Shown: positions 13,492 to 42,625 of the stretch, piece after piece
Layout of the letters: every line of letters begins with the position of its first letter
How positions within the stretch are numbered: position 1 is the stretch's first letter
Source: Botryllus schlosseri
Lineage: Eukaryota
Assembly (NCBI GenBank): GCA_051294905.1
Contig: CM119371.1
Span: forward strand, 24,740,001-24,804,000
Direction of reading: 5' to 3'
DNA length: 64,000 nucleotides
The notes under the pieces: model-generated
Seen by the model: the letters and a program-made list of their open reading frames with translations, nothing else
Told to the model about the DNA's origin: nothing
The model's database searches: none
Translations under genes and position numbers: made by a program

Positions 13492-14955
13492 ATGGCAACC
13501 AACAGCAACACAGACGCAAGTGAAGCTCAAAAAATATTACATAGTCACGATCTTAGAAACCGCAGGGATGAACCTGCTACTGGATCCGGCCTGTCCGATG
13601 ATAATGTTCAAGCAAACATTGGCCTACTTCGTGAAAATCAAAATGTCGTTGTCATAACTCCCGAAATTAACGCGCCTGTCACTCAGACGGACGCCGAGGA
13701 TAATGATGAGGCATCCCGGGGCGCGAGTGGTGAGATTCCCCGGAATGCACCACCTACCCGTGATCCGGTTCGCACGAATTTAGTTGTTGAAACACACCAC
13801 CGTTGCGCTTCTCGCCAACGCGAGAACCGGCAGACTCGCTCGTTCGGCTTGACAAAGGAATATTGCGACATGTGTATTGAGGAAGCTGGACGCGCTATTA
13901 GTTCGTTTAAAGATGCAACTTTTGATCGAACGCGCCCGCTTTATACTTCATTAATTTGAATAGATTGTTTGAAAATTTCAAAATTACATCACAGTACGCG
14001 CGCTGTACATTTCTAGCGAGTGTTACGCAGATCGATGTGCGTATGTCGGTTGCTGAAGTAGACGATACTGATCCCTGGCAACCGGATTCCTTCGATATCG
14101 TGAAAACCGCGCTTTTAAAAGTTTTTCAAAAGAGCATTGATAGGGGGGGTCAAGATATTCGCACGCTTTATGAACAGAAAGGTCTTCTATTGCCGTTGCA
14201 AGCTCACGCCGCGGTAGTCAACTTCTACAGTTCTGTAGCACCGGCGCATCGCCCGGTTGGTCAAATGAAACGTATTTTCTTCAGTATATTGCCCGATTAC
14301 TTACGATACTCTCTGCTAATGCATTGCGAATCCGCTTCCATGAGCGGCCACATTGATTTCAGACGCTAAAGACGCTGATAATTCTCTACAACAATAATGC
14401 CTAACCTAACCTAATGCCTCCTATTTGCTGTTTGTCTTTGACTACGGAACTAAACATGTATTTTTAAATGACTCGGGAAGTGAAAAGAGCTTGATAAAAG
14501 CCCTGACTGATTCATTGGGTAGTCCTTCGGTCGCGTTCCGTTGTCCCAATGACACAATACTTCTCGGCTATGGTCTATCGAAATTGACGCTGTCATTCGG
14601 TTCTTCGGTCCAATATACGTTCAGTTATGAGATCGCATCGCTGCCCTATTCCATAATTGGCGCGGGCTTCCTTCGCCATTTTGGTTGGAATGTAAACATG
14701 CGCGAGCGCACGATTAGGGATGAGCACAATCAAATAACGATCTAAGCCGTTTCGGACGTTCAGAAGGCAGGTTTGGTATCTAACGTGACATCATGTTGTA
14801 CAAATGACGGCATCGCATCACTGCTATCACGCCACCAATCACTTTTTCATTCTGAACTCGACAGACCTCCTCTGCATGGATTTGAATTTGATACACATCA
14901 CGCGTCATTTGTTGGATCGTTTATTCTGTCGATTCGCCTTACGCTATTGTACTAA
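13492..14955 (+). mobile_element. Ty3/Gypsy LTR-retrotransposon relic: gag (frameshifted) and aspartic protease
   Basis: ORF 14425-14745 LFVFD..FLNDSGSEKSLI...YSIIGAGFLRHF matches the Gypsy protease pattern (DSG motif, IIGxxFL); ORFs 13492-13959 and 13956-14369 are gag-like. RT motifs and an LTR pair were not found. The element may span ~12960-16580. Confidence 0.8.
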
Positions 14956-21105: not shown

Positions 21106-23816
21106 AAATATATATTTGATGAGTATACTGAGAGTATTAGCACTAACTTCATATTGACTATGAGCTTTGATGTGGCATCAGCAGTCAATCATTTGTACAG
21201 AAGGCACTCGTTTTGCTATCTCACTGCATATTATATACAATTCAGGGGCGGGTCAACTGCGACTCCTTCAGCCTTTGATTGCGGCACTTTAATTATATTG
21301 CAGACGGGTTTCGCTATTTACGCGGATGCAATCAATCGCGGATTGTTGCCGTGTTGTTTCTTTATGGTTTACTCAAGACTTGTAAAATTTAGGAAGAGGT
21401 GGCACTACAGTTAAAACTTGGAATTGCACCCTCGAATCTATTTCACAAACGTTTCACCCTCAACGTTTCACCCCTGCCTGGTCATCAATCTATGATAAAC
21501 TATTGTGTTCAACAATGAACTTGATAATTGATCACGCCAACGCGGGTCACGATCATTTCTGGACTTGCAATGGCGGCACTGCTCCTCGATTTGTATTGCA
21601 AAGGCTAACAATAACTGCAGAGTCTGGCCAAGAAAGTGTCGTCTAGCGATAATTGCAAGAAAAGAAAGTATGAACAGGAAAATAGAACGGTAACTAGAAA
21701 CGTTAATACGAAACCAAACAACAAAATTTTGTAACGAGTTACCCAACAGAGAAGGATTTACGGAAAATAAAATTACCGAGCTGAGTCTTTCCTTACATTC
21801 TAATTAGAACTTAAAGGGACTACTCCACACTGCTTCGTTGCCATATCAGTCAGATTTCATACACCTTGCAGCCCAGGTGGAGACGCATTGTATCACCACA
21901 CACCATTGAGCTAAATTCGGTAGCCTAGATTTCATTTGACGAAATATATCCGTTTTTCATAATTTTGTTGTTGTGTCTATTTCATCACGTATGAAGCAGG
22001 TCTTTCCACCCTGATATTTATATGTTCGTATAATACTTATACGCTCTGAAGGAACGGATTTCAGGGGTGGATATTTTCGTCACAACAATTTTTAGCCTTC
22101 ACCAAATTGAAAAGCCTTGAAGAGCACCGATTTAGAAAAATACTCAAAACATTGCATCTACAATATAAAGTCCCTTAAAAATAGGAATTTCCCCATTATT
22201 TTTCTGCTACAATTTCGGCAAATCATTATGGATTACCGTTCTTGAATTTACGTGTCTAATAACTGATCTAATAACAAATCAAAACGATCTTATGATATCA
22301 GATTGCCTTGTTCAAGCACTGTGGCATTTGTCGACCACATTGAAACTCATTTCTATGTTAGCCAATACGCAGTCAATCATATGATGAAATTTTGTCACTT
22401 CGTTTTGTCGACAAAATGAGTGTACACAATGTCAACAAAATGAATAAGTGAACGACTCTTGGACTATTGTAATGCATTTGATCACTACAACCAAATCCCT
22501 GCAGGTCGGGAACAGAGTAATTGAAAATGACAAAAGTATCGACTGGCATGGAAATAAGTTCTGAATACGCCACAACCGCCAATACGTATTGTACACTAAA
22601 TTGTTAGATTTCCCAGATTGAAGTCTGATCCCGCAATTTCACAGAAAATGCCTACAATGAATATTTGCGGGGGTGGGAAGAGTGTTTTTAGTAGTTGTCC
22701 TTCATCAGAAATTTCTGACATTGGAATGGACAGATAAAATCGACATTATACGTTACTCTTGCTGTCGACGCAAGTAGCCCTAAACAGAAAAAAAACATCT
22801 GGTGTTCTCAAACTTGGCATTTACTTTACTTTGATTTTGAGCTATTTTGATCCATCCAAGTTAATTTGATGTAGGCTACAGGAAACTTATAGATAATGAA
22901 TATTAGTTTTCGCCAATTTGTTGACATATTTGATATTGGAATTCCTATATCATCGAAAATAGAACTATTTCTTGCTCACGACGGCGAATATCTCTACACT
23001 CGAAAAGCATCTCCTATTATAAAGCATAATAGTTACAATACTCTTATGTTGGTATCAATTTGCATTGTGCTACGGCCAAAGGTGGTCAATTTAGGAGTAG
23101 AAACGCAAAACCCGACTGAAGTAGAACAAGCACAAAAGAATCAAGTTCTATATTGGACAAGCCAGTATCGAACCGTGCATTTGTATCGAATGCGATAAGA
23201 ATTGTTTCGGAGCAGATCAGCACGGATGTACCGTCTCAAATTTGCTAGTCTGGTTAGTAATGCATTCCCACGTCTAGGAAATAGCTTTATACGGAGCATT
23301 GAGTCGCTAATACACACTCGATAATCTTTCAACCATAGAAATTCACCGACTTAATATTTTTTGCTATATTTTCGTTCGATGATTTGCATCGACTCTCTCG
23401 ATTATTTTTGGGTGACTACGCGAAATGAATGTCGGACATTCCAGCGAGCAATTATATCATGGTTTCGACTAATCACTACTGACAAGTTGCATCATTATAA
23501 TTCAGCTTGCCAGTCTGTTGTTATGTGATTGTACGATGACGCCAGATATCTACGGTTTCGTTGCGGATATTATCAGCATCACGGGATGCTCGACAATATT
23601 TTTTGTAGAATGTGATTTGACGAAACAAAAGTTGCAAAGTTTCACGGAAACAGGCAAGAATATTAAAATATCTGTAAGTTGCAAATTTTGCTGATTGATT
23701 TGTTTTGATATAAATAATTCGTATTATGAAAGGAAGTACCAAGAATTAAATCGACCTTAAACTATACACTGTAATTGTAAATAATTCGGACATGATGATT
23801 ATATCTTATTTCCTAG

Positions 23817-23984
23817 CTCTCGAAGCTCCACATAAGCGATGTCAAAATGCCCGCTGAATGTTACAGCGAAATCGCAACTACACTTAAGTCAATCAGTTGC
23901 GAAGAAATCGTGTTCGGAAACTGTGAATTGACGAGTCGGAAGCTTTTTGAATTCAACACTGGATGTAAAGACAACGATCTATCT
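23817..23984 (+). CDS. Intact 168-bp phase-0 internal exon, LRR-like (copy 1)
   Basis: tttcctag|CTC...TCT|gtaagt; 56 open codons: LSKLHISDVKMPAECYSEIATTLKSISCEEIVFGNCELTSRKLFEFNTGCKDNDLS. Confidence 0.72.
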
Positions 23985-24395
23985 GTAAGTTTGATTAATG
24001 TTCAGAAAACGTGCATTGCTTGTATCACGAGTGCTTGCTAATTTTTCATTTGGTTTCTTATTCCTCTCCGCATATCACACAATAATACTAATCGCAGAAT
24101 ATAATGCGTTTGACGATTGATATTGACAGTAGGCTACTTATTCCGGGGATTGGCCGTTCAAAGTGACTTCTGTGATGGATAAATAGTCAGAAATCCCTCA
24201 AATTAATGAGCACACAACAGAAATTGACAAAATGAATTACTGAACAACTCGTGGACTCTTGCAATGCGTTTGAGCGCTGCAAGCTAATCCCGCATCTTAG
24301 AAACAATTGGAAAATGTAGTTGACTGTATAACAACGCACTGATAAGAATTGCGATGATAGTTTGGGGTAGCCAGTAAATGAGACGGGTAAGTTAA

Positions 24396-26298
24396 AATGA
24401 AATTAGTATAGAGAGCTATGCAAATTTGATCTGGATACGTGGCTAACGATAATACAGCTTGTACACTACATCGGTGGATTTCCTAGATTAAAATGCGATA
24501 AGATCATAATTTCATGGAAAGAGTTAATGACGACAATAACTGCGGGGCGTGAGATGAATAAATCAGCAAAATCGTAAACATTATGCTTATTTATTTCTCG
24601 ACATTTGTGACACTGGAAGGGACAGATAATGAGAATGAGAATGTTTTCGCGCTGTGTAAATATTTATCCTTTCTCAGCCCATGTGCACATATTCACCGGT
24701 ACAAATTGGTATTTCTTTATGGTGTGCAACCCTTTCCTCTGGTGTTCGCATCTGTACTGTAGGGCTCAGATTACAAATGACACTACTATATTAAAATCGC
24801 AAATCAACTCGCATTGAATCACGAGTAGCGCGATGCAAATTTCAAGCAAAATTCAATCCTCTAATTAATTAGGGAGTCAGTTCGTAAATTCAATTTACAT
24901 ATTGACGGCCGACATCACATCCAAATTGAATTAAGCGTCGGCGGCCGCATCATTTTCCTTCTACTGCAGCAGATTGACTAACCCAGGACTAAAGAATTGA
25001 TATTGGGGTTAGCTAGAGACTGTTCTTGCTGGAAACTTATTTCTTCGTAAAGCTTGGCCGTTTTTCACGCGTCTCGGTCTTGGCAGTAAGTGGGCCATTG
25101 CACATCAAGGCAATATTCCCATTCGTATCAGCAAATTCGAATGATATTATCATCGCCGAAGCCGTATCAGCTAGTGATATTGTGAACAAGAGAATGGCTT
25201 ACTTTGAACAGCAACAACAATTTGTATAAACTGAAATCAATTTCAGCATTTCAAAATGCTTTATCAAGCGTTCTTCCGAAATTCAAAGCAGGTCGCGGGC
25301 CACAAAACATGACCTTGCGGGCCGCGTGTTGGTGACCCCTGGCTTCGAGTATGTTACCCTAGCTTTGACAGAAAGTCGAATAATTAGTTTGCACAACATG
25401 CCCAAATACACTGGTTTTTCGTTATGACACAGAGCTAACCTTTTAATTTCAGAGGAATATATATAGACATAGTCCAAGTACGTAGAAGTACCGAAAGCGA
25501 GTTATTTAATTATTAGGAATTATTATGGTGTGATATGTCAAGCAACGTTATCGAAATTGTTAAATATTTATTAAGTCGCAATTTACCTCTTAGGTTTGGG
25601 TTAAACTTCCATTGCTGTCATCCCGGTGCAGTTACTATCTCAAGAATGTTTACGTTTACTGCTAAGATTATGGGAAAATACTGGTACTTCAAACAAAACT
25701 TTCACAGGGGAAAACCTCAAATATTAGTCTGTGGACATGTAGCTCACGGTTCCCATGCCGGAAACCAACGTAAATAAATGTTTGCAACATCTCTAGTAAA
25801 CTATATTTTCATGAACTTCTTCCGAGCTCGTAATGAAAAAAAATATTGGAGTCCCGTATTTATGCGAATCTCGGCCGTAGCTTGAATGAAATTAGTATAG
25901 AGAGCTATGCAAATTTGATCTGGATACGCGGCTAACGATAATACAGCTTGTACACTACATCGGTGGATTTCCTAGATTAAAATGCGATAAGATCATAATT
26001 TCATGGAAAGAGTTAATGACGACAATAACTGCGGGGCGTGAGATGAATAAATCAGCAAAATCGTAAACATTATGCTTATTTATTTCTCGACATTTGTGAC
26101 ACTGGAAGGGACAGATAATGAGAATGAGAATGTTTTCGCGCTGTGTACGTCAGTATCCCTGCAAATATAGTAGTGTCATTTGTAATCTGAGCCCTACAGT
26201 ACAGATGCGAACACCAGAGGAAAGGGTTGCACACCTTAAAGAAATACCAATTTGTACCGGTGAATATGTGCACATGGGCTGAGAAAGGATAAATATTT
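24396..26298. repeat. Inversion with a 263-bp direct duplication and a 135-bp inverted duplication
   Basis: 24396-24658 matches 25885-26147 directly (1 mismatch seen); 24658-24792 matches the reverse complement of 26164-26298 (1 mismatch seen); the DNA between them is inverted relative to paralogue 28765-29060. Confidence 0.88.
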
Positions 26299-26853
26299 GA
26301 TAATAATATTTGAAACTATAATAATATTGACGAAATTCACCCATGAATACCAAAAAATTTTCGCGCTTCGCGCGACTCCGGTACGATTCCCCGTCACTGT
26401 TCATAACTTGATTACTCACGGTTTCGGTGCGAAGTGTAAGCCGATATGAGTAAATAGATTGGACCGGAATTCAGTGGCAAAGGGCATGGTACGTTATACG
26501 CCTCCAGTTATTACATCACGACTATGCACGCGGCCGTAGGCTACAAGTAATCGAAATGCTGCCATGACTAGCAAAAAGTTAGCCCACCCATGTTTTAGTT
26601 GCTGAAGAGTGTTGTCCGGTATCGTGCGCAGCTCACAGTTCAAAATAGAATGGAATTGATGATTCTGATATTTTTTTTTGTATTTGCTTTTCTTCAATAA
26701 AATATTATTTCCTATGCCCGTCAACCATGTTATAGAGCACAGAGTTATATACTGACGTAGGGTTATCAAATTGGGGTCGCTAAACTGCATTGTCTATTGA
26801 AGTCATGCGGCCCGCGGCCTCTGCAAATTTAGAAAAATGGCCCGCGACCCCTG
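24988..26853. mobile_element. hAT-type element (family C) split by the inversion: left half inverted (24988-25341), right half 26593-26853
   Basis: Both halves align to the intact copy 32885-33865 but in opposite orientations; TSD halves are ctcgaagc (reverse complement of 25342-25349) and ctctaagc (26854-26861). Confidence 0.8.
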
Positions 26854-26919
26854 CTCTAAGCATTCATTCAATACTTGCATTAAATTCTTAGCAGTTGCGG
26901 CGCAAAATCACCATGGTTG

Positions 26920-29900
26920 CATTATAATTTCACGTACGAGTTGTTGGTATTACTATATCATGTGATAAAACACTCCGTTCGATCAATAACTATTCCTGCG
27001 CTAAATTGTAACGACACCACTACCACAGCAGCTCCGCCGATGACGCTGATAACGCGAGGTGACAGATGATATAAATTCAACAGTAATATATGCAACTATC
27101 ATTACTTTTGTTAAATATACATCAGTTTATTTTGGAGTAATTTCCCGATCGCGCGGCTAAGAAAACGAAGGTGACTCATCTGAAAAGTAGTGTTGTTGTG
27201 TGCGCGTATGCTGGCAGTTTTGGTACGTTCATCTAATCGACTTTTACATTGCTACATCAGTAGGCTATTTTTCTGCAAGCGAATTCGCCTTGTAACCTCG
27301 TTGTCAATTATATAGATATTTAAATACATCTGTTTATGGCGCGATAAAACAGGGGAAGGGGTGCGTGCATTCGTCACAACAGCTTTTTGGGATCACTAGA
27401 TGCAAAAATATTTTAAAAATATCGCATTTATATTAGAGGATCAGAATTTCGTTAAACACCGAAATTTCATTGTTATTTCCAGCTACGAATTAGGCAGGTG
27501 GGGGCGCAAATATACTAAGACACTTTATTGACTATTTCCTATTTGACTCAATTGCTCAATATGATAAGTAAAATATAAACAAAAATCGTAATCGCCAGGA
27601 CATCGCTACGTGTATTGGTAATTCCAGTTTCGCAACCTTTATTAAACAAAAGAGTAAAGAAATAATAATCCACTTTATAGTATATAGTTGCAAAGCAATC
27701 GGTATTGGAAAAGAATGTTTATTTTTTAGCTCTCGACTCTGTTTATAATCGATGCCCAAATGCCTGCTGAAAGTTTCCGTGAAATCGCAATCACACTGAA
27801 GACCACATGCTGCAAAATGATACAGTTCCAAAACTGCGAATTGACGAGTCGCAAGCTTTTTGAATTCTACACTGGATGTAAAGACAACGATCTATCTGTA
27901 AGTTTATTTACTGTACAGAAGACGTGTATTGCTAATTTCACGAGTGCCCGCGAAGTTTTCGTTAGGTTTCTAATTCCTACCCGCAGATCACGCAACAATA
28001 TTAATACCAAAAATAATGGGTTTGACGAGTGATACTAGCAGTTCTTATTCCCAGGACTGGACTTATGACTGACTGACTGGCTGACTTATGTGCTGGGTGC
28101 TGGAAAAGTATTTAGAAATCTCCAAATAATGAGTAAACAGCACAAAATTGGCTAATGAATTAGTGACCCACCCGTATAATCTTGTGATGCTTTTGATTGC
28201 TGCAAGCAAAGCCCGCCTGTGGGGTACAGTTGAAAAAAGCAGTTCACATCATTACAACGCACTGATAAGAATTGCAATGATAGTTAAGGGTATCCCAGCG
28301 CATGAGACCGGTACGTGAAAATGAAGTTAATATCGAGTGCTATGCAAATCCGTTCTGCATACGCCGCCATCGATAATACAGCTTGTACACTACATCGTTG
28401 GATTTCCTATATATTAAATAGGAAACAATCGTTATTTCAATAAAAAGGTCATGGCTACAAGAGCTGCTGGTGTGAGAAGAATGAATCAGCAAATTCGTAG
28501 ACATGATGCCTTTCATTTAGCGTCATTTTCTCGACATTATTTACGCTGTAAAGGACAGCTGTTAAAATTGAAATAATTACGTGCTGTCTACGTCAGTATC
28601 CCTGCAAAGAAACACATCTACTATTCTAAAACTTGACTCAGAGATCCGTTTTCATTGTGTGACATCTTCCTGAAATTCTTTACTATGACGTAATGTTTGA
28701 AAATTGTGATTTTTCATACATTCTTGGCAAAATTGAACCTGTTAAGGTTTCGCGAATAGCACAATAAGTTACTGTCGAGACTGGCATAAATACTGAGTTT
28801 AAATATACTATTAATTTACGATTTCGGAACGTCTTGATAAAAAATTAGTTTACTAGAGATGGTGCCAGCAGTTATTCCCGCTGGTGTTAGGCAATGTTGC
28901 TTGACATATAACGTCATACTAATTCCTAATAATTGAATAACTCACTTTTGCTACTTCTACGTACTTGGACTATGCCAATATATATTCCCCTAGAATTGCA
29001 AAGTTAGCCTGTCTCATAAAAGGAACCAGTGTATTCGGCTATGTTGTGCAACTAATTACCCGGCTTTCTGGCTAAGATGTGGTATGGTAGCATTTTCCAC
29101 CCATTCCTTCGATGCGTGCTATAAATCCATGTCACTTGCAGTGCAAAGTGGATATGGATGCTTATAAATTTTACGTATGAGTTTTCGGTATTACTATATC
29201 CTGTGATGAAACACTTCGCTCGCTCATTAACTATTTCTGTGCTAAATTTTAAAGACACCACTACAATATCAGTTCATCGATAACGCTGGTCACCCGGGGT
29301 GACAGATGATTTGAAGTCAACGGTACTACATGCAACTATCAGTTACTTTTTACAAATATACAGCAGTTACTTTGAGTAAATTTTTCGGTTCGTGTGGCTA
29401 AGAAAATGAAGGTGACTCATCTGAAAAGTGATGTTGTCATCTGTGCGTATACTGGCAGTTTTGGTACGCTCGTCGAATGGACTTTGATCTGCAATATTGC
29501 TACAGCATTCGGCGATTTTTCTGCTGGAAATTCGCCTTTTAACCTCATTGCCAATTATTTTATATATATGTTTATGGCGTGGTCGTTGTTGTTTGTGGTA
29601 TTCATGGTGTGTCGACTACTATGGTCATTTACACCTGACCGATATTGGGCCTACTTAATTTTGATTCCGTATTTGCCGTCTTGTAGTACTGACCACTTTT
29701 GAGCTTTTTATAAGACGCCGCTTACGCGTCAGAGAACAAGGTGACGGGTTGCATGCGTTCGTCACAACAGTTTTCAGGTATCGTCAAATACAAAAATATT
29801 CAAAAATCATCACATGTACATTAGAGAATCAATGTTTCAATAAATACCGGGATTATATTGCTATTTCCAGCTACCAATTGGACAGATCGAGTCGCAAATA

Positions 29901-29980
29901 TAGTAATACACTGGATTGACTATACTCTCCTCTTTGAAACATTCGCTTACGAAAGATCCTCGTGGATATTAGTCAATCTG
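26920..29980 (+). repeat. Core of a tandem segmental array of a ~2.2-kb host module
   Basis: 26920-27550 aligns with 29165-29950 (offset ~2245 bp); 27730-28605 aligns with 23817-24658; further pieces lie at ~22070-22680, 32450-32610, 35300-35550 and 10110-10225. Confidence 0.82.
27730..27897 (+). CDS. Intact 168-bp phase-0 internal exon, LRR-like (copy 2)
   Basis: tttttag|CTC...TCT|gtaagt; LSTLFIIDAQMPAESFREIAITLKTTCCKMIQFQNCELTSRKLFEFYTGCKDNDLS. Confidence 0.72.
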
Positions 29981-29985
29981 ATAAG

Positions 29986-30534
29986 TAGGGCGATTTTTTT
30001 TTGACATGCCAAAATTTGTCAAAGTTTTGTAAAAAATAGTAGAGTTAGGAGAAAATTGGTCAAAATTGTTCACAAAGTCAAATTTTTTTGACGTCTGCAT
30101 TTCGTTTCTTTCGTAGATTTTGTGCTGTCGGTGAAATTATTTGATATTTTTAAGCTTGTAGCCTACTTCAGAGGCCTACAGTTGTAAACGGCCAATTGTC
30201 TGCTCATTGTGAGTCATAAACGGTCAAATAAAGCAAATGGTAGACATGGTGTTATGGTCAACGTACCGCAATATCCTAAAGAAAGACTTCTTGGGCATTG
30301 CAGCATTCTTATATCAAGAAGCGCATGATGAAAAACTGTGATGTAGCCAACATTGTCAAATTGAATCAACACGGAGTGTCACGAGTAGTGAACGCACAAC
30401 TTGAGCGTTGTCAGTCAACAACTGCTGCTGTTGAACGTTCGTTCTCCATTCTTGAAAACTTTCTTAGTAAGGACATGCACTTTCTACCCAAGAATGTAGG
30501 AAAGTATCTCTCGTTGTGCTACGACAAATTTTAA
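29986..30534 (+). mobile_element. hAT left end and dimerisation-domain fragment
   Basis: Starts TAGGGCGATTTTTTTTTGAC; ORF 30298-30534 contains CQSTTAAVERSFSIL (hAT VERSFS motif). Confidence 0.75.
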
Positions 30535-31090
30535 TTCGGTATTTTTACGCAAGACTCGGCCCGTATCAGATTAGAAATTTTCCATCGATCTAACCGTACG
30601 TGGGAGGAAAGCGCACGAATGTCGATAAAAATGAATTGCTGACGTATAAGAGAGGATAAGGACGCCTTGTTATTCACTTTTACACTGCTGGTGCCAGGGG
30701 CAGTATCTCTAGTTCGACCGAAATTCGGCGTCGTGATCCGAAGCATGTGGTCTACTGCAAACGGTATCTCGATATTACCAAATGTTCGACATTGCTCGGC
30801 TCCAGTTGACTTGTTTATATTCCAATACATCTTTTTCTGAAGTAGTAACCACTAGTGAGCTTTTAAAATTTCTAAGTTCAAAAATCGCTTACCATAAACT
30901 TTGCAGCCGTAATTAAATTAGGCTCGATGCGATAAATGTGCTCACGATTTTCATTCTGGGTATTCCAGATTTCAATGAACTCATCACTGAACATTTTGCG
31001 ATTATGAAATCACTCCGCGCGCAATAGGCCTATTGATACGAACGTTAAAATATGCAGGTATAAACTACTGTACTTTATATTTTCTTTTCG

Positions 31091-32311
31091 CCACTCCCCC
31101 CCCAAAAAAAACGCTGGTCTTAGAACCCCCATATGTTGATGAACCGAACTTCTTGACCCCCCTCAGCCTCTTCGCTGTTTACTGCTACTTACTTAGCGTC
31201 TGCATTGGCGGCCGTTGGGGGGGGTCAGCTTATCTCGCCTAAACGCGCCAAGCGCGAAAAATTTCTATTATTCATCATGATTCATTCATGAATTGGTCAA
31301 TATGATCGGGAATTGCATATATGTTGCTATCAATTTTTATCCTCTCTCTGCTCACGTAATCAGATTTACAGGTATATATATCTGAGTGAGGTGTGGTTGA
31401 AAAGGTAGGACCCCTCAATATTATAATTAAACATCTTCGGGCGTATACCCGTTGGCAGGAATGAAACAGTACTTGGTCTGGCCCCGCATAAAATCTTAGG
31501 TCTGGGGCTCCCATAGGGTGATAAACCTACCCCCCATCACCTTGTTCGCCACGAAAATGAGTTTTACTGCCTAGTGAGTCAGCGCGAAAATTTAAAAAAA
31601 TTCATGATAAAATCGGTCAATAAGATCGGGAATTGCATATATATTGCTATCAACTTCTCATCCTCTCTGCTCACGTAATCAGATTTACCGGTAGAGCTGA
31701 GTGAGGTGTCTTGGACACTGTAGGGCCCGTCGGTATGACTCCTTAACATGATGTTATTTCGTGACCTCCTGTCTGCTATATTAAAAAATATAGAATCGCC
31801 ATAACGTAGGCTACGAAACTAAAAGACGCACACGATTTCAAATCGGTATTTCTTCACTGGCATATAATTTTTCCCTGTGGGATGATATTTGTCTTGTGAG
31901 GTTCAGATTGCCAAGACAGTATTTTGTATATAGCGAAGTTTTCGGTCAGCATTAGGGCAGTCCTTTTCGGCCAAGGTTTTCTCGCTGCCGATCGTTCTGG
32001 CACCCTTCTTGGAGTGGCATGTTACATGGCCTACTTTATATGTCTTGGTGCGTCGTGGCGCATTAATGGCCAACGCCAATATGCCCATTTCTATAAATCT
32101 GGCGTATTTTTCTTGTGTGAAGAGAACCTCAAAATCAATATAATTGGCAACTTGAAATCGCGCGCAGCGCGAAATTTTTTTTTGAAAAAGTTGCGTAAAG
32201 TTTCAAAAAATACTATAAAATTTATTCTAATTCACGAAATAATTTTGGGCCCCCTTCGCGCTCACCCCCCCCCCCAATTGGGGGGTTTGGGGTGCGGCAG
32301 TTACGGGCCTG
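31091..32311 (+). mobile_element. Family B hAT-type element, left terminus degenerate
   Basis: Long similarity to 18700-19964, including the internal duplication; ends GCAGTTACGGGCCTG. Confidence 0.82.
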
Positions 32312-32884
32312 GGTGTGACCACCACCAAGTCTCATTTTCCCGTCGGAATACACTATTGTGACGTCATTTAGACAGTTAAAATCGCGTACACTCCTTGCTT
32401 CACCACCCTATATTTTCACTAGCCGCCACTGATAGTAAGACAACGGTCAATGGATTGACTATTATTCAATATGACCTAATTGTTTACGAAAGTTCCGGGT
32501 GCATTTTTGTCATGAAATTACTCAGACCAATAATTAATTCTTAAAAGTAAACCGTAAACGCAAGCACATTGCTACGCATGTTGGTAATTCATGTTTCGCG
32601 ACCTTTCTAATATGAGCAGGCCGTGTTAGTTTTGGCATTTCAGGAGCCAGATGCCAAAACTGCCAAAAAAAAAATTTGAAAATGCCAAAAATAACACGGC
32701 CTGCCAATATAGTGTATTTCGTTCATGGTGTTGTGTTAACAGGACCGCGTTACAAGCGAGAAGAGCGTGTGTCAAGGGCGGGTTTCTTAATCTGGGTCCA
32801 ACCAACCCATTAGGGGTGAAAGCATGGTGTCCTAAATGGTGTGGGCACAGCGAGATTGAACAGCTGACTGCATTTGGTTAAGGT

Positions 32885-33865
32885 CAGGGGTCACCAACAC
32901 GCGGCCCGCGAGGTCATATTGTCCGGCCCGCGACTTGATTTGAGATTTTGGAAGAAAGCTAAGAAAACCATTTTGAAATGATGAAATTGACTACCGTTCA
33001 ACATATTGTTGTTTTTGTTGTTTCCAACTAAGCTATTCTCCGTTGCCCAACATCGCTATCCGTCACTATAGCTAAAATGGCTGTGGCGATAGCCACAGCA
33101 TTCCATCGGAGAATCAGGTGATATGAATGAGCTATTGCCTTGACATGCAATGGCCGAAACACTGACAAGACCGAGACGCTTAGAAAACGGCTTAGGGCAG
33201 TGATACTTAAGCTAGGGGTGCATCCCCCTTGTGGGAGCGTGAAAGCCTCTGACGGAGCCACGGAGCTGCGCCCAGCTGAATTTTTTTCGCGCTTCGCGCG
33301 ATTTCACTCATTTTCGTAGTTGTTGCTCTGTCTATAGTCCGGAATTCATATTATAGAAGTCTCATCAACAGTCCCTTCCCGGCCTACAAACTATACGTTG
33401 GGATTGCTAGCATTCTGGTTGCATTTTGTGATATGACGATAAGGGGGGCGCGAAGTTTTTCAGTATCACAAATGGCGGCTGTCTAAAAAAGTTTAAGAAC
33501 CACTGGCTTATGGCTTCGCCACAATTTCAAGCTTTTTCTGAAGATCGTCTTTCAGCAAGTAACGTATCTTGCTGGCCCCAATATCGATTCCTTAGTTGCT
33601 GAAAAGCGTTTCCAGGTATCCTGCACAGCTCGGAGTTCAAAATAAAACAAAATTGATGATAATGATTTTTTGTTATATTTGTATTCCTTCAATAAAATAT
33701 TACTTCTTTAGGGCCCCTATGCTGTTGTTAGGTAGCACATAGTTGTGCTGAAGTAGAGTTTTAGAACGTGGTTGCCTATTTATATCGATATCGAGTTTGT
33801 GTGGTCCGCGGCCGCTACGAAATTTGAAAAGTGGCCCGGGACCCGTTTTGAGTTGGTGACCCCTG
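32885..33865 (+). mobile_element. hAT-type element (family C), nested
   Basis: TIR CAGGGGTCACCAAC / GTTGGTGACCCCTG; TSD gttaaggt/gtttaggt. Confidence 0.92.
33198..33505. mobile_element. hAT-type MITE nested in family C (third nesting level)
   Basis: CAGTGATACTTAA...TTAAGAACCACTG; TSD gcttaggg/gcttatgg; absent from the family C copies at 25050 and 40350. Confidence 0.85.
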
Positions 33866-34510
33866 GTTTAGGTCATACTTTCCATTTGTTCAAAGGCAAT
33901 TTTACGACCATTTTTGACCGACTTGCCGAGCGCTAAATTTGGTAAAACGGGTATCAATAGAAAGCTGCCGCTCTACTCATTATCAAAATATAAATTCTAT
34001 TCTGCTCATGGATCTGGAACCCCAAAATCAACAACGATTTTTGCATTGTGATCGAGTTGAACATTGTGACGCAGCCAACTTTCTGGTTATTTCTGTCCGA
34101 GCTTCAGTCTCGCTTTGGCAGACAGTCTTGTTGCGTCAAGGTTCTTAAACAAGCTACCCTTCCCAGGACTCTTCCGTGTGAGTTGGTAATATTAAAGTCT
34201 TCCGAAAATATCTCGGTAGACTGAAGGAGATGGGATGGCCGGGCTACAAGATAGAATGTTTTGAGAGACATCGGGAAGAAAATTCTTTCCGCGATGAGAT
34301 CGATGACACTAACGAAGTGATCTCTTTTCATGATGCTTGGAAGCCGGTTCGGCCCTGCGAAAATTTTGAAGCTCTGAAAACCTTTTGTGGAGGACTGGCA
34401 ACATTCTTTCCCTGAACGGCTACTGTAGAAGCCGATATTTCCCAGATTCATTGGGCGAAAAATGAATTCAGGAGAAACTTAGCTGACCTGAGTTTGGAAG
34501 CACTGTTACA

Positions 34511-34902
34511 TAGGATTACCATACGTCCTCGTTTAAGAGGATTTGTCCTCATTTTTGACTTTCTTGAAAGTGTCCTCGGAGGACGCCCTTTTGTCCTCTT
34601 TTTTGAGAATTCAGGTCATATTTAATATTTATAGCAAAATGCGACTGACATGGCGTAAATCAGCACCAAAGGGACGCTCGGGCGGGTATTGCGGAAGCTG
34701 GTTGGAAAGTTGACTCTTTTTTTTAGTCAACCACCTGCCAATGTGGAGTGAAAAACGGTATTTTGAGCTCTTCTTTTTTTTAGTCAACCGACCACAAAGT
34801 GGGAAAAATTCACCGTTTTTCGAGAATTCTTCTCTGGTTTTGCAAGTCTGAAATTTCTGAAAAAGTGTCATCCTATTAGCTTTCCAAAATATGGTAACCC
34901 TA
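34511..34902. mobile_element. MITE with TAGGGTTACCAT-type termini
   Basis: TAGGATTACCATA / TATGGTAACCCTA; perfect TSD ctgttaca; interrupts the host transposase frame; a related right end lies near 44139. Confidence 0.9.
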
Positions 34903-35376
34903 CTGTTACAGTGCAAACAATTTAAGTCTATTCAACAGCTATAACCACCAGGTGTTGAACGTGTTTGTTAGGCTCTTCTTTCTGTTTGCTTATTGGCACC
35001 GATTCCGAGTAGATACTGGACATTTTGTGGTTTCGTTTGATATTATTAACCTATGAAATCGCTAGGTTTTTTCTTCTTCTTATTGTTTGTTGGCACTGAT
35101 TATAAGTGGATGCTGCACATTTTGTGGTTTCTTTTGATTAACTGACCCAAAAAAGCGTTTTTATAACTAATTCGAGTCTGAAACTATCTATTTAGAGGAC
35201 AATGCCAAAACTGCCAAAAATAAAAATTGAAAAATGCCAAAAATAAGTTATTTTTGGCAGTTTTGGCATATGCCAAAAATAACACGGCCTGAATATGAGG
35301 GAGTATAGAAACAGTCATCTACTGTACAGAAGTATTGTAAAATAATCCGTTATGGTAAATAATGCTTATTTTGTAG

Positions 35377-35544
35377 CTCTCAACTCTGTGTATAAGCGAT
35401 GCAAAAATGCCCGCTGAAAGTTTTCGTGAAATCGCGATCACAATCAAGACCACATCTTGCAAAACGATACAGTTCCAAAACTGCGAATTGACGACACGGA
35501 AGCTCTCTGAATTCTTCATTGGATGTAAAGACAACCATCTATCT
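35377..35544 (+). CDS. Intact 168-bp phase-0 internal exon, LRR-like (copy 3; not in the ORF track)
   Basis: ttttgtag|CTC...TCT|gtaagt; LSTLCISDAKMPAESFREIAITIKTTSCKTIQFQNCELTTRKLSEFFIGCKDNHLS. Confidence 0.72.
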
Positions 35545-36089
35545 GTAAGTTGAAAGAATGTCCCTTAAAGGCGAATTGTTTAGATTGGGTGTGAACATCA
35601 GGGCGATCGTGATCTGTCGGTAGATTGCAAGATCCAATCGAGATCCGCACAATACAAACCATATGACTTATTGGGTGTAAGGGCAATATTGTCATGAATT
35701 TTATTACTCGTGGGATTGATAGACCACGGAGAATCCTGCATCTGTAAAGTAGAAAGCGATTTACTGGTGATAACCTCCTGCTCTAGATCGGTATAAAATA
35801 ATCAAAGCTATTTCAATATATCACAGAGGTAGTTGAAAATTGGCTTGGATTCATTCTAAATGTACATCCGTCAATGATCCAGTTTGGACAATACACGATA
35901 TATATGATTTCCAATATTAAAGTTGCATATAATCGTAATTTGATGGAGAAGTTGAGTTTTTGGGCATGAGTACACCAATCCACTAATTACCGGACATGAC
36001 GATTTGTAGAGTCGCAATTTCGTCGACATATTTGGTGCTAGAATAGGCACATAATCGACACTGGAAACATGATCAAAATTTGCGTAAGC

Positions 36090-37521
36090 CAGTGGTTCTC
36101 AACCTTTTTGGCTTCGCGGACCCCTTTTGACCTTTACAAACCCTCGCGGACCCCCTCAAGTTTTATTTCGATTTAGCTCTATTATGGTGCAACCTTCATC
36201 TGTCTTGTGCAAATATGAACTGTAGGCTTGTGATAAACAGCAAAATAATGATTTTTATTGAAGATAACATGATATTATTAATGTAGAAATTGGTGGACTT
36301 TTATTATTTAAAAGCTAATTTTGCTGCTGCATTAATTGAAGTACGTGGTCGTGTCTTGAAAATCCGCGACTTCGTTTTGATATGAACGAGGAGTGCCGAA
36401 AACCATTTCAAAAAAGATAGTTGAAGGCTAATGCAATATTAACACATAACGCCTCCGACGATACTTTAGGTGTGATTGCAACATTTATGGCACCAAAATA
36501 ATGAAACAAGTATTTTATGAACATATCACGTCCAGCATCTAGCGCAGGGACGGGCAATATAGGGACCGCTGGCCGGATTCGGCCCGTGACGGCATTTGGA
36601 TGGGTCCGCAGAGGTTTCTACCGTCAAAGTGAAATCCTAATCTAAAAGAATAGACAAATTTTATGCTCCAAATAACGCATCCAAGTTTTCCAACCAGAGA
36701 AAGACTGTCATGAAACGATTTGTTCTGTTCTGGTTTACATATATATTTTACGAGCAAACATTTTCGAACATGAACAATTGAACATTAACAAGACAAGGCT
36801 GCATATCAATATAACTGGGGATATGAATTTCAGGGTTGGAGCGTAAGGCCTTGATAGCAACGAAACACTCCTTGTTCATCAAATAATCAGCTTTGTAGAT
36901 AGGGCATCCGCAATAAGAATGCGCAAAATCTGATAGCCGAGCTTTAAGAGCAGGTATATCATTGTCCGATTTATGACGAGTGTCAGCCGAAAATATTCGG
37001 GTTCATTTCCATATGAATATACTATTCAATTGTAAAATAAAGTTCTGTACCTCCAAGAAGCTGTTCCCTGCATTGGGACAAATTATGGAAATACTTCAGA
37101 AATTTTTATTTCAAACGACTGTTCACTAATTTGACGAGACTGTCAAGTTCAAATCGAAAGGGTATCGCAGACATTACGAAGCCACCCTGATTGATGTTAT
37201 TCTCCCCATATCTTAGTTTTTTCCACAAACCCCAATAAAACGTCTATAAACAGCAATATGTTTGTATCAGCAGGTTATTGGAAAACTGGCACTGGAAATA
37301 AGTTTACACACTACGATAGTCCATGTCAGACTATCATTATGATGATACGAGTCATGAGGTTTTAGCAGCTGTGGTGCGAAACTGCCTCCTGCTTTCTCAA
37401 ATTCAAAAATATAATAAAAATTAGGTTATCAGCCTTTTTGAAAATTTAGAGGTCTCGCGGACCCCCTGAAATTGCTTCGCCGACCCCTAGGGATCCGCGG
37501 ACCTCCGGTTGAGAACCGCTG
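36090..37521. mobile_element. hAT (Buster-like) non-autonomous element
   Basis: TIR CAGTGGTTCTCAACC / GGTTGAGAACCGCTG; perfect TSD gcgtaagc; cgcggacccc subterminal repeats; a truncated MITE end lies inside at ~36545. Confidence 0.92.
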
Positions 37522-37575
37522 GCGTAAGCCTATCATGCGACTTGGTTAACTTCATCTAGCATATACTCCATATAG

Positions 37576-38262
37576 CACGGGTGGGCAATTATTTATCCAG
37601 CTGCTCAAATTAAAAGCAGGAAATACGTGGGCGGGCCGTGTAAAAAATTTATATGATATTTTCGGGTATTAGTTGATTTTATGAATTGACACAGTTAATT
37701 ACATTAGTCACACATGCTGCTCAGAATATATAATGATATTAGGACAGGAGAAAGTGACGAGTAATCAACATAATAATTGAGGACAACGGTACCATCATAA
37801 TTTTACACTATATTTTATTCCACAGACCCGTTCTTCCAGTAAGACATTAACATGACTTTAGGATACCACTCAAGTAGTGTGCAGCTTGATGATCTAGCCT
37901 TGCTGTTGATGGAAACTAGCAGTGTCTGGCAAATTCGCCATCCCCTAGCGGAGTGTCTATCCTCATGTTTTTTGTCATCAAACCGACTTAAAATATACTC
38001 CACAGCGACCTGCTCGCGACAGACTAAGATGATGGGTTCACCACTGACTTCGGTATACAAATATTTAGTAGTCCGAATCTATTTTGGAATTGCGGCAGTT
38101 GGCCCGCACCTTCCATTTTTGACATGCCCGGACTTCATCGCTTATGGGCGGTAATGACTGATCAAGCACCGACACTGGACACTGATTGACTTGTTTTACT
38201 AATTGGGGATTTGCAAATGTATCACGTGACAGTTTGGGCGGGCTGGGTGCTTGTGACCGCTG
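37576..38262 (-). mobile_element. hAT deletion derivative with a GTF2IRD2/Buster-like N-terminal zinc-finger remnant
   Basis: Perfect TSD ccatatag; degenerate TIRs CACGGGTGGGCAA / TTGTGACCGCTG; minus ORF 37815-38060 GEPIILVCREQVAVEYILSRFDDKKH resembles the PxCLxCxxxxAVxKEYNLxRHxxxKH motif. Confidence 0.8.
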
Positions 38263-39987
38263 CCATATAGGGCTATAAGAAGACTATATCATAATTCTGT
38301 GTGGTATATGTGTCTCTGCGCACGTGTAAAAATAGACAAGTTCGAAATAATTATAGTAGCTAGCGAATACATTTGTTAAGGAAAAACATGAAAATTTCTA
38401 ATTCTGTAGCTAGCCCGTGTCAGCTTTGACCATTTTCTACGTTTGTCACATGCTGAAAATTACATATGTAAACTGCATAAAAAAGTATGTGGTGTACGGC
38501 AAACTGTTTCGAGGATTGGACATGATTTTTAACGAATAAAACGGCGTTTGCTGCCTTCGCTTTGAAGACCGCAATGAACAGATAGTCTCTGGAGTCAATA
38601 TTTACGGACCATGACTGTATTCGTATTGCTAAATCTACAGTTCCTTATAATCCGGAACTCACATTTGATTATTGCACAACGTTCAATCGTTAATATTCCA
38701 ACTGTAGACAGTTTATAAGCGATCATTATATTCTACTCGACATATCCTCAATAGTATTTCTTTTATTAAAAGTTCATGGCGATGCAAACATGTGGTAATG
38801 CATATATTTGTGCAATATGTCGGAAATGAAAATAAAAAAATATACAAATTCATTGAGTCGATCACGGTAACAATAACAACTATATTAGAAAGAATGCTAA
38901 CTAGCTTTATTACTTTGACATTTTTTTTTATCTGGAATGGTTGAATAGTTATATGCCTGGTTGTCAATTGGATTGGGTACCTTAAATGTATTTAAAAGAC
39001 GAACGATTGGTTCGAACTCACATCCATATGTCGCGCTTGATCAATTAATCATATGTGACTGTGTGGTGTCTTTAGATGGTTCTGCAAATTTTCAATATAG
39101 TTTAGAAATTATTGCCTTATTCTTTATTCGGGTCTGCATTTATATGAATTTGTTGATGCTTAGTTAGCATACAATTCATCACATCATTGGATATGTCGAA
39201 AGTATATTATATCAATGCCAGTTAGAATGATATAATATAACCCAAGCCAAAATCACTTTTCAGTATAATTCACACATATTTGTTTCGTACAGCTTTCGAG
39301 GCTGAACATCATGGATAGTACAATGCTTCCAGACGCTTATTACGACGTGGCAAATATCGTCAAAATCACCAAATGTACTATTTTGTATTTCCGATATTGC
39401 GATTTGTCAATGCAGAAATTGGAAAGCTTGGGTAAGGGTTGCAAGGAAAGTCACATATTGGTAAGTTGATAATATTAGGAAACCTAATTTTGACAAAATT
39501 TGGCGTTCAAGTTCAAGAAAAAAGAATTTAAATCGAAATGGCGTAGAACGTAGAGTAATCGTCGCAAAGTGACTTATGTCCAGTTTCCAAATTTTGAAGG
39601 TCCATTTATAAAACTTCCAAAAAAGCAAGTTTTTAAAAACTTTTCATGGTTATGTCTATTTCAATAATTCAAAGTCAATCGGGGCCAATATATGGCCGAA
39701 AGAAGATGAAAACTTTACGCAAAGTAAATTTCCCCAAAATGTGAAAAATGAACATAAGTCGCTTTGATTCCACTCCGACGATATGGTCACTTAAAGTGTA
39801 TTCAATTAGGACACATTTTGTAGAATGGCATTTTAGATTTTATGACCGCCCAAAGGCAATCAATTGAATTTGATTGTTCTCTTGCCGAACACCTGCGACC
39901 GGACAATAAAAATTGTTTGTCTCTCGAAGAACTGCAAAGTTTGAATGGTGTGCTATCCGTGACATTGGTTTTTGATCTGGATTAGGG

Positions 39988-40612
39988 CAGGGGTTGCCAA
40001 CTCAAAACGGGTAGAGGGCCACTTTTCAATTTTCATTGAGGCCGTGGGCCCTAAGAATGCAATATCGAGACAAAACAAACCACACTTTTAGCAACCATTA
40101 CTCATTTACGTCAGAACAACGCTGTGCTCTCTAACTTTGGCGACGGGCATAGTTCCAACAAAAAAGGTACTACTTTCATAAAGAAATACGAATATCATGA
40201 TCACAAATTTAATATTATATTGTACCTTTGAAACATGAGCTGCACACGATACACGACTAAGATTTTAAGCGAATAAGGAATCAATATTGGATGTAGCCTG
40301 TAGCGAGACACTGTACTAGCTGAAAGGCTATATCTCCCGGCAAAGCTCCATCTTGTGGGGAGTAAAATTCTCTTTTATAAGCGTCTCGGTATTTGCAGTG
40401 TCTTGGCAACTGCACGTCATGGAATTATATCGAATGGCCGATTCATATCAGCTGATTCTTACTCGATGGAATGCTGTAGCCATTTGAGCTAGCGAGGAAT
40501 AATGATGCAAGGAACAAGATAATAGCTTATTTTGCAAACAGCAACAACAATATTTTGAAACTGAAATCAATATCATCATTTCAAACTGCGGGCCGCGTAT
40601 TGATGACGCCTG
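39988..40612 (-). mobile_element. hAT-type element (family C), inverted diverged copy
   Basis: CAGGGGTTGCCAACTCAAAACGGGT matches the reverse complement of 33841-33865; ends TTGATGACGCCTG; degenerate TSD gattaggg/gttaagga. Confidence 0.82.
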
Positions 40613-41889
40613 GTTAAGGATAAGATACGTTTGAGCCATGCCCAAGTAAGGAAATATAAGAGATTTGGCAATTAGCTAAAATTCGGCACAAATTATCGAC
40701 TCATGCTGAAATCATACACTTCGTTTCGCTCAGGAGACATCGCCCCCTTTCAGATGTTTTCACGCCTCCACTTTGAGAAACACTGGGATGAAACCCCACA
40801 AAAAGGTTCGCGTTCACACGAACCAGAACGTTTCAAGGGTTCCAACCATCTCTACTTTTCTGCATTTCTGATTGGAACTGTCTGTCCATACGAAGGAAGT
40901 TAGCAAGAATAGAAAATAAATAACCACTATGCTATGATAACCAATATCGACAACACAGTCAATATTCAGATTTGAGATATTGGCGTGAACTTGTAAAAAC
41001 GTCAGACCTACTGAAATTTCGCTCCGTTATAGATGGGATTTTCATCGCGCCAAGTCAAATGATTTGTTTCATTTGGTGGTTTATCGTTCACTATGACTAG
41101 TTAATTGGTCATCTACAACAGCAGGCCTATAAACTGATACAATGTGTAAGATTTCAAATTATAAGTTCACCGAAAGGCAAAAAAACATTTGAATTCTTAA
41201 ACTTCGTTAAGTAACAACAGTTCCAAACAGATAAGCGCTCCACGTCTAGCATTTTGTGAAGCAATGCCCAATTAAATAGTTTATTATATATATTTTTTCA
41301 ATGTCAGAAAATGCCAAAATTCTAATTTTGATAGGTCAAAAAATAATCGCCCGATTTATAAGAAAGGTATATTTTATTACGTGAAATGAATATAACAAGA
41401 TCTATGCATGTTGATTTCAGATTCCTACACTTGGGATTGATTGGTCAAATATAACTGCAACTGATGATCATATATCAATTCTGTGCGACTTGATGGCGGT
41501 TGTTGGGGAGATGCTGGCTCTATTTAATTTGGAAATTGATGCTAAAAGAACGCAAAGACTAATAGATACACTTCACCTCGAAAAGTCTAAGGTCAGATAC
41601 TGATTCTGTACCAAGTGTTTAATATTTTATTCACTGAAAGCTTGCATTGGTAATCCCTCCATTTCTGGAGTCGGCAGGGAGTACTTACGTTACGTCCCGC
41701 GACGAAAATCTTTTGGATCTACAAACTGGAATCTATCAGGATTCCTCGCCTTGTTGCGCGTGTACCTGTACAAGTCGTTAAAACGTCGTTTCGAAAATCA
41801 CTATTATACAGCAACTGTTTTCATCATTTAGTACTGATGAACTTATTGCAACGCTGTCCTAAATATATATAAGAGATGCGGAAACTATA

Positions 41890-42625
41890 AATTTCCAAGC
41901 TTATGTATCAGTTCCACTGTGGTCATTGCCCCGAAAATTTCAATGACTTCTTTACCTCGGTATCAAAAATGCATAAGTACTGCACACGTGCGTCCTCGTC
42001 GTTCAAGCATCATATGATCGACGCGAAAGATGATAGATCTATCAAATATGCCGGACTTGAGGTATGCAAGACTATGCTGCCGTCTATCCGTCAGTCGACA
42101 AGCATGTCAACATTCAAGACGACACACAATCAACTTCTGCTGAATGAATACTTGTCAGCCCTCTACTTTACCGGACGACGACCTGACATATCGATCTCGC
42201 CTACCGTCACATGCCACCTAATTTTGTCGCTTGTCATTTTTTGTTAAATTCTTTATTTTTCATTCAGTGTGCATGCGTCCTCTTTACACCGCCTAGGCCC
42301 TGGTGGGTGCATGATATCAAAGACTACTCCAAGTCGTTTCGACACCTTCCTATCTTTTGATTGTATCGCAGCATTGTGGTGTTTTTCAATGATGAAATTT
42401 TAATAATAAAATGAATTGAACTGAACTGAACCAGTCCTTTTATATTATATTAGTTTACTTTTCATTCATTGTGCATGCTTCTTTTTACATCGCCTAGGCC
42501 AGAGGTCTGTTTGATTTCAAAGACCACTCCAAGTCGTTTCGACACCTTCCTATCTTTCATTGTATCGCTGTCTTGTGGTGTATCGAAATGATGAAATTGT
42601 TAGCGATAAATTGAATTGAATTGAA
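41890..42625 (+). mobile_element. 3' end of an L2/CR1-group LINE with a duplicated 3' UTR
   Basis: KLMYQFH...FNDFF...HKYCTR...SIKYAG...STFK resembles this group's ORF2 C-terminus; 3' UTR segments ~42255-42430 and ~42458-42625 are duplicates, each ending in (ttgaa)n. Confidence 0.8.

Follow-up and report, generated by a model that had tools for sequence, protein, structure and literature searches.

We analyzed a 64,000-nt stretch of the Botryllus schlosseri genome (assembly GCA_051294905.1, contig CM119371.1, forward-strand positions 24,740,001 to 24,804,000), called the window throughout, in which a row of equally sized exons probably encodes the leucine-rich repeats (LRRs) of a NOD-like receptor (NLR). 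The chromosome carrying it is referred to as C1, so that the window spans C1:24740001-24804000 of the 495.5-Mb assembly, and 40 kb on each side were also examined; coordinates with a chromosome prefix refer to the chromosome, all others to the window. An original prediction made from the nucleotide sequence had described three paralogous exons in this region, here named e1 (23817-23984), e2 (27730-27897) and e3 (35377-35544). Its description of them was accurate: all three are 168 nt long, encode 56 residues on the + strand without a stop codon, are of phase 0-0, and are bordered by a pyrimidine-rich tract with ag on the 5′ side and by gtaagt on the 3′ side. The count was too low, as the window contains five intact units and one decayed relic. 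The two additional intact units, both of which had been missed, are e0 (23506-23673, + strand) and e4 (39293-39460, + strand).

The first of the five exons, e0, is an A-type unit (LASLLLCDCTM...) of 168 nt with an open frame flanked by ag and gtaagt, scores 100.6 bits with the hidden Markov model of the unit, and is separated from e1 by an intron of 143 nt. The exons e1, e2 and e3 are B-type. Unit e4 (LSRLNIMDSTM...) is the last one found, keeps its gtaagt donor, and is the final unit in five paralogous loci; it is 96.4% identical to C1:24033421, with a ratio of nonsynonymous to synonymous divergence (omega) of 0.12. The proposed paralogy of e1-e3 is borne out by blastn within the window (e2/e3, 87.5% over 168 nt, E 1e-56; e1/e2, 81.0%, and e1/e3, 76.5%, each over 153 nt), by a protein identity of 66-80%, and by a profile of the units, with which nhmmer scores e1-e3 at E 1e-43 to 7e-46. 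Among the 22 residues that vary between them, 17 fall in residues 1-34 and five in residues 35-56; the nearly fixed tail therefore holds, and the reported concentration of substitutions in the first part holds roughly, as the variable zone extends to residue 34 and is not limited to the first ten residues. A minus-strand frame over e2 (27559-27891) was dismissed as an antisense artefact, since conservation in the family wholly follows the + strand splice sites.

No NACHT, start or terminal exon had been noticed in the window. NACHT exons are nevertheless present in both flanks, 25 kb upstream of the window at C1:24714755-24716026 (+ strand) and 14 kb downstream of it, past e4, at C1:24818034-24819269 (a paralogous exon, 47.1 bits). 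The upstream exon is open over 424 codons with the first Met at codon 3 of the frame, matches Pfam PF05729 with 45.8 bits (cut-off 26.7; E 7.4e-12), and carries an intact Walker A motif (P-loop, GEAGAGKS); a hit to NOD2_WH (E 0.031) falls short of the cut-off of that family. Searches by tblastn with proteins of the tunicate Styela clava gave collinear matches at C1:24714779-24715978, 24718947-24719159, 24721015-24721347 and 24725503-24725793, followed by the units. Two of the matched exons, C1:24718947 and C1:24721015, correspond in these alignments to regions of the Styela proteins that follow NACHT, and Pfam finds nothing in the 161-residue frame there. Between the NACHT exon and the window, a unit-profile search located five more units (C1:24732380, 24732813, 24733524, 24738623 and 24739029). 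All 10 units from there to e4 are 168 nt long, open, of phase 0-0, and flanked by ag and by gtaagt or gtgagc. The fifth and sixth are separated by a 24.3-kb intron containing a dead unit (9107-9199, + strand), which has five stops and no splice sites and matches the nhmmer model at positions 24-117 only (E 9e-12).

With a probability of about 0.7, we read the window units as LRR units 6-10 of one NLR-type gene with NACHT-LRR architecture, at least 64.7 kb long on the + strand, in agreement with the earlier view of the exons as the LRR region of an NLR-like gene. The gene would run from the NACHT exon through three exons matching post-NACHT and early-repeat parts of the Styela proteins to five LRR units, the 24.3-kb intron, and the five units in the window. 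Its predicted product is a cytosolic sensor of the STAND (multidomain signal-transduction ATPase) class; the LRR horseshoe would bind a ligand or keep the NACHT module inactive, and oligomerisation upon activation would launch a defence signal. As unit 10 keeps its gtaagt donor, a further 3′ exon is expected. Read-through of this donor would add Val-Ser and then a stop, so that unit 10 could also be the last coding exon.

The layout also allows the units in the window to be viewed as an LRR cassette without a head. They would then be either a duplicated tail left as an orphan or an independent transcription unit made of LRRs only, and splicing would not join them to the NACHT exon that lies 49 kb upstream of e1. 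Both the 24.3-kb gap with its decayed unit and the paralogous locus C1:24164808-24249776 speak for this; at the latter, the e0-e3 block occurs whole or partially three times behind a single NACHT exon, indicating that such blocks duplicate on their own. We consider a cassette of this kind quite improbable: a six-frame survey found neither a NACHT exon nor another + strand start between the upstream units and e0, e0 itself starts at a phase-0 acceptor and shows no start codon context, and the next NACHT exon, C1:24818034, comes only past unit 10. Moreover, in the paralogue C1:23450101 the same e0-e4 block begins about 11 kb past the NACHT exon.

Predicted leucine-rich repeats in the 56-residue unit

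An AlphaFold2 (AF2) model of e2, built with 71 aligned units, reached a predicted local distance difference test (pLDDT) value of 92.6 and shows a beta-alpha-beta-alpha order, with strands at residues 3-7 and 30-34 and helices at residues 13-26 and 40-52. Each 56-residue exon is accordingly modelled as two strand/helix repeats of 27 and 29 residues, predicted to be of the ribonuclease-inhibitor-like kind found in NLRs. The 71-unit profile matches designed proteins of this LRR type repeat on repeat (4r5d, E 5e-4; 4r6g, E 5e-3). As a lead only, an Atlas feature search placed e2 next to clusters carrying LRR_6 and LRR_1 (scores 0.92-0.97), with LRR_6 in 10-89% of their members. For the repeat region of the Styela protein XP_077976001.1 (residues 1182-1650), the model of all 469 residues folds as 17 strand-helix repeats (pLDDT 89; predicted template modelling score, pTM, 0.84). 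It matches COI1, ribonuclease inhibitor (3tsr_E, E 3.7e-7, TM 0.48), NLRP3, NLRC4 and NLRP9, with 81 chains at E≤1e-3.

The resemblance to the ribonuclease inhibitor class (3tsr_E and 2bex_A; designed 4r5d and 4r6g) lies in alternating strand/helix repeats of about 28 residues. In contrast, sequence identity is 10-20%, Asp and a small residue take the place of the consensus Asn or Cys in the first repeat of each unit, and the root-mean-square deviation from ribonuclease inhibitor chains of about 10 Å shows that the curvature differs. The LRR or solenoid similarity that had been proposed for the exons is supported by the AF2 unit model, the profile matches and, most decisively, the Styela relatives with their tandem units and multi-unit fold, although the LRR models of Pfam miss the single exons.

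A clustered NLR-type family and its tunicate relatives

In the B. schlosseri genome, at least 94 NACHT exons exceed the Pfam cut-off (all 94 of the 94 scored, from 224 candidates). Thirty paralogues of the NACHT exon were found at E≤1e-20, eight of them in C1 23.45-24.82 Mb, all on the + strand and seven of the eight stop-free. Judged by these sequence matches, the predicted gene is one of eight paralogues in a 1.5-Mb head-to-tail cluster, and its NACHT subfamily has about 30 members. DNA matches to e2 follow the same distribution, with 30 of 40 in C1 23.46-24.96 Mb, again all on the + strand. When unit 10 was used as the query at the protein level, 150 matches were scored, clustered on C1, C3, C5, C7, C9, C11, C12, C14, C15 and C17, and unit clusters lie downstream on the same strand wherever a NACHT exon of the subfamily was listed, including those on C3, C5, C9, C12, C14 and C15. 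The array had been called decaying, which is overstated: in 50 of the 52 units examined in the C1 cluster, the frame is open and both splice sites are kept (ag acceptor; gt or gc donor), the exceptions being C1:24647728, with stops and no ag, and C1:24247199, which has lost its donor.

Two relatives differ markedly in layout. A compact member of the subfamily at C15:13238110-13268000, whose NACHT exon is 45% identical, packs approximately 24 of the 168-nt units into 26 kb, with several of them only 110-290 nt apart. In the paralogue C1:24164808-24249776, a TAA codon lies inside the NACHT exon, yet 13 units follow, including the three whole or partial copies of the e0-e3 block; the gene may be dying and yet have enlarged its tail.

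Outside B. schlosseri, a phmmer search with the NACHT exon against 1.84 billion representatives gave 140 matches at E≤1e-3. The best match is 50% identical and unnamed, and all 14 named clusters among the 20 looked up belong to Styela clava. Homologous-protein searches at longer lengths, queried with e2, with the NACHT exon and with the 71-unit alignment, gave no passing match, a negative that carries little weight. The best named NACHT relatives are XP_039248824.1 (2,508 aa) and XP_077976001.1 (Death-NACHT, 1,650 aa), at 33% identity with E 5e-50 and 3e-51, respectively. These proteins contain 33 and 12 tandem 56-residue units, respectively (unit-profile E 4.5e-230 and 2.7e-87), and share with the window units the pattern L..L.I.D..M...F..IA...T....I.F..C.LT..KL..F..G. 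No LRR match, PF13516 (LRR_6) included, was obtained in these relatives with Pfam at E≤0.001. The exon order of the window gene is collinear with the Styela NACHT proteins, compared to which it has 10 units; the Styela entries are automatic models labelled ‘uncharacterized’. XP_077976001.1 has a Death domain, whereas XP_039248824.1, the closest long relative, lacks one. Among the RefSeq Styela isoforms, X1 and X4 share 1,323 residues, after which X4 ends with 14 different residues inside a unit; this alternative 3′ end cuts the LRR array from 12 matches to six.

The design of the window gene resembles that of known vertebrate NLRs. For NLRP3, Hoss et al. 2019 (PMC6642158) describe 171-bp exons with two LRRs each (28 + 29 residues), whose borders fall at a fixed point of the beta-sheet, and report that exon 5 is skipped. 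The background given in the original prediction, two LRRs per NLR LRR exon of about 171 nt, agrees with that description. Likewise, one exon of the window gene corresponds to two LRRs, its border is fixed at the beta-strand start, the exons are symmetric, and the NACHT domain lies in one large upstream exon. The difference is in size, with 168 nt (27+29 residues) here and 171 nt (28+29) in NLRP3. In contrast to vertebrate NLRs, the window unit is missed by Pfam LRR models and no pyrin or CARD exon was found at the locus.

In zebrafish, the NLR-B30.2 genes form a clustered family whose NACHT domain occupies the largest exon, with a separate exon for each LRR (Howe et al. 2016, PMC4852459). The B. 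schlosseri genes share with them the large, lineage-specific, clustered family, the location of NACHT and helical domains in the largest exon, and a variable number of LRR exons. In contrast, no B30.2 or Fisna domain was seen in the window gene, and where the zebrafish study reports little LRR variation, variation here is focused on strand x positions (see below). The window gene thus follows the design of NLRP3 and of the zebrafish genes, and its 168-nt (27+29) unit belongs to a sequence family of tunicate type.

Ascidian NLRs are given as NACHT-LRR or NACHT alone in a 2024 survey (PMC11508797). The terms NLR and NACHT are both absent from a review of tunicate immunity (PMC5465252) and from the Styela genome paper (PMC7540406), and searches of the literature library used here returned no paper on an NLR family with this 56-residue unit. 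The locus is an ordinary member of a large, little-described NLR family. Given the silence of these two papers, an account of an expanded NLR family in tunicates, with a 56-residue unit of its own, would close a gap in comparative immunology.

The exons e1-e3 appear to be old. When 33 B-type units and an outgroup were analyzed by maximum likelihood, the tree placed e1, e2 and e3 in separate clades of six (support 98/96), seven (94/87) and four rows (87/88), each made up of same-position units of other genes. The e1 clade comprises e1 and same-position units of five paralogous genes, and e1 is 92.9% identical to C1:24222476 and C1:24240665; e2 is 91.7-94.0% identical to six same-position copies without an indel; and e3 groups with C1:23505311, C1:24030949 and C1:24247199. 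This grouping indicates that the unit duplications predate the gene duplications and that e1-e3 are, by the tree, old duplicates; a view of them as recent tandem copies in a decaying array does not fit. In line with this, window positions 22879-42533 are collinear with C1:24239731-24254268, which has the same five units in the same order over 9.4 kb, compared to 15.9 kb here.

Growth of the LRR region by module duplication, as had been suggested, is seen in a younger event. The segment C1:24731618-24733482 is repeated 6,229 nt downstream at 91.5% identity over 1.9 kb and carries two units. A third, partial copy without a unit (window 6185-7050, + strand; 88.3% identical over 870 nt to C1:24731280-24732128) lies, like the dead unit, within the 24.3-kb intron. 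Unit numbers also vary among the paralogous genes. The family would thereby evolve by duplicating single units, blocks of units, and whole genes.

Constraint, expression and competing explanations

Exons and introns of the locus have diverged to different degrees. Compared to six same-position copies, the e2 exon is gapless, while its 400-nt flanks are 77-92% identical with two to eight gap openings each. Between e2 and e3, the ungapped exons are 87.5% identical, and the 400 nt on each side are about 50% identical and effectively unalignable; together with multi-kb insertions in the introns, this confirms the reported indels and insertions in the flanks. Nei-Gojobori omega among e1-e3 is 0.31-0.34. 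In pooled comparisons of the five window units with their nearest paralogues, whose pairs are not independent of each other, omega is 0.40 (32 nonsynonymous and 20 synonymous differences; Fisher p=0.002), and no indel occurs in 840 nt of exon where about 9.2 are expected from 32 gap openings in 2,920 nt of flanking intron (Poisson P=1e-4).

Variation within the unit is unevenly distributed. The x positions in question were picked from the motif after the sequences had been seen; across 33 B-type units, the ten of them in the two LxxLxLxxN strands have an entropy of 1.90 bits, compared to 0.83 elsewhere (Mann-Whitney p=0.003), and omega in a 12-position x set is 0.79, compared to 0.34 at the remaining positions. 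These values point to purifying selection on the exons, combined with additional amino-acid variation at the LxxLxLxxN x positions, that is, on the predicted concave face. The copy illustrates how a lineage-specific NLR family may be built and kept: LRR exons of constant size, neutral to the frame, persist between introns that transposons are filling, and the predicted binding face is where amino-acid variation concentrates.

Several points count against a single, functional NLR gene. The NACHT exon and the window units are joined on the basis of strand, order and paralogue architecture and not of a transcript, and the 24.3-kb intron with its dead unit lies between them. In the 14.7 kb upstream of the NACHT exon, the Death region of the Styela proteins has no tblastn match and no start or death-fold exon was identified, so that the death-fold exon looked for in this flank did not turn up. 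A terminal exon has not been found either: comparing frames downstream of the compact C15 member with window positions 39461-47000 gave no credible candidate, nor did a search by motif, in the window and in two paralogues, for another half unit preceded by ag. With regard to the fold, Pfam reports no LRR family at E≤1 for the five window units, and what was modelled with many units is the protein of the Styela relative and not that of the window gene. The e2 model, being a single unit, is too small for fold searches to discriminate: Foldseek found nothing at E≤0.001 with it (best E 0.3, with NLRP1 LRR chains at TMq 0.63 among unrelated weak rows), and a VIA search gave a best Z of 4.7, with RanGAP1, NLRP2, NLRP1 and 4r5d at 3.9-4.6 mixed with unrelated folds.

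To the same side belong three observations on the exons themselves. The after-the-fact choice of x positions bears on the entropy contrast. In the case of e0 and e1, the exons (6.5-8.3%) have diverged no less than the introns (8-11%) from the closest copies, indicating that part of the conservation is due to recent duplication alone. Synonymous divergence (pS) among e1-e3 is 0.18 in codons 35-56, compared to 0.48 in the first 34, which suggests partial gene conversion or constraint at the nucleotide level (e.g., splicing signals) in the 3′ third, beyond protein selection alone.

Finally, transcripts of the exons were not detected. Four bulk RNA runs with the same species label, from unspecified tissues, were mapped to window positions 22001-42000. 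They were sampled shallowly, at 6.9-10.0 million records each (about 6-13% of a run; 1.0-1.5 billion letters), with 279-1,115 reads placed per run, all of them on the transposon insertions from 29.3 to 37.3 kb. Depth over the five exon bins was 0-0.1, and none of the 11 joints listed in the four runs was an exon-exon joint; the splice sites, at which the original prediction might have been confirmed, therefore showed no sign of inclusion or skipping. None of the indexed RNA runs contained the stretch; 21 raw-read RNA runs were associated with it by species label alone. As the sample is shallow and its tissues are unspecified, expression is neither shown nor excluded.

The missing reads would be explained if the copy were silent or a recently dead young duplicate, its exons intact only for lack of time. 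Further features that fit such a fate are the introns bloated by transposons (intron 8-9 measures 7,479 nt, compared to 3,338 nt for that of the paralogue), the dead unit in the 24.3-kb intron, and decay among relatives, i.e., the TAA in the NACHT exon of C1:24164808, the lost donor of C1:24247199 and the stops of C1:24647728. However, the exons are 3.6-7.7% diverged from their nearest paralogues and have still acquired none of the approximately nine expected indels, at an omega below one half. The NACHT exon is open throughout with an intact Walker A motif, and splice-site pairs are kept in all 10 units. NLR genes are commonly expressed at a low level, and the RNA sample was shallow. We therefore think it unlikely that the locus is silent or dead.

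The phase 0-0 of all 10 units means that skipping any of them keeps the frame, as had been pointed out, and their uniform length of 168 nt fits a cassette from which symmetric exons are included or skipped variously, yielding many receptor variants from one gene. Precedents are human NLRP3, which skips one 171-bp LRR exon according to Hoss et al. 2019 (PMC6642158), and RefSeq Styela isoform X4 (1,337 aa), which ends within the unit array, compared to 1,650-1,651 aa for X1-X3. Yet X4 differs by its alternative 3′ end after residue 1,323 and not by cassette skipping, no junction of any kind was seen in the sampled RNA runs, and all units have a strong gtaagt donor and a pyrimidine-rich acceptor, which suggests that they are used constitutively. 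Combinatorial splicing at this locus is in our view very improbable. The same low standing applies to a broader, speculative model in which the symmetric exons of the approximately 30 sister genes would be interchangeable cassettes, included or skipped in different cells, with gain and loss of units and exchange between paralogues. If it were true, cassette use would give a sea squirt without adaptive immunity a far larger repertoire of NLR sensor surfaces from about 30 genes, and the variable x positions on the concave face would be specificity determinants.

Mobile elements in and around the introns

In the single-gene reading favored here, introns would have been inflated by inverted-repeat transposons while the exons stayed intact. 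The description of the introns as transposon-filled holds true, as they contain inverted-repeat elements with many copies in the genome, and their extra length results from insertions that are absent from the paralogue. One of these, a DNA-transposon-like insertion in intron 8-9 at 32617-35291, has 22-nt terminal inverted repeats that are 95% complementary and contains a nested element (32885-33865) with 14-nt inverted repeats (100%). The paralogue is contiguous across the insertion site and therefore lacks the element, which had 63 genome matches listed out of 15,852 first-look candidates. A further repeat insertion in intron 8-9 (31088-32308) is skipped by the collinear blocks shared with the paralogue and is matched by dispersed repeats at 67-79%. 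In intron 9-10, a second inverted-repeat element (36082-37529; 23-nt terminal inverted repeats, 87% complementary) is likewise absent from the paralogue; among the 42 matches listed for it, out of 6,961 first-look candidates, 38 are near-full-length at 88-93% on 14 contigs.

In all four runs, RNA reads accumulate on the insertions at window positions 29300-37350, where depth reaches about 12. Nearly all of them run on into unlike sequence and lie only partly on the insertions, indicating that the elements are transcribed from other genome copies.

Other open frames were noted in the window and beyond it. Within the 24.3-kb intron, overlapping + strand frames of 236 and 147 residues (13249-14366) are probably another mobile element; the 147-residue frame matches DUF7041 with 20.6 bits, which is below the cut-off of 28. 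Among the window frames searched with Pfam, a hint of a hAT dimerisation domain (E 0.078) came from intron frames only. On the minus strand, a 192-residue open frame with an acidic stretch (57136-57711) matches no Pfam family (best E 0.061). Between the window gene and the next NLR gene lies a minus-strand retrotransposon pol region (C1:24811800-24814965), whose frames match RVT_1, RT_RNaseH_2 (103.8 bits) and Integrase_H2C2 (60.9 bits), along with a weak match to a gag aspartyl protease.

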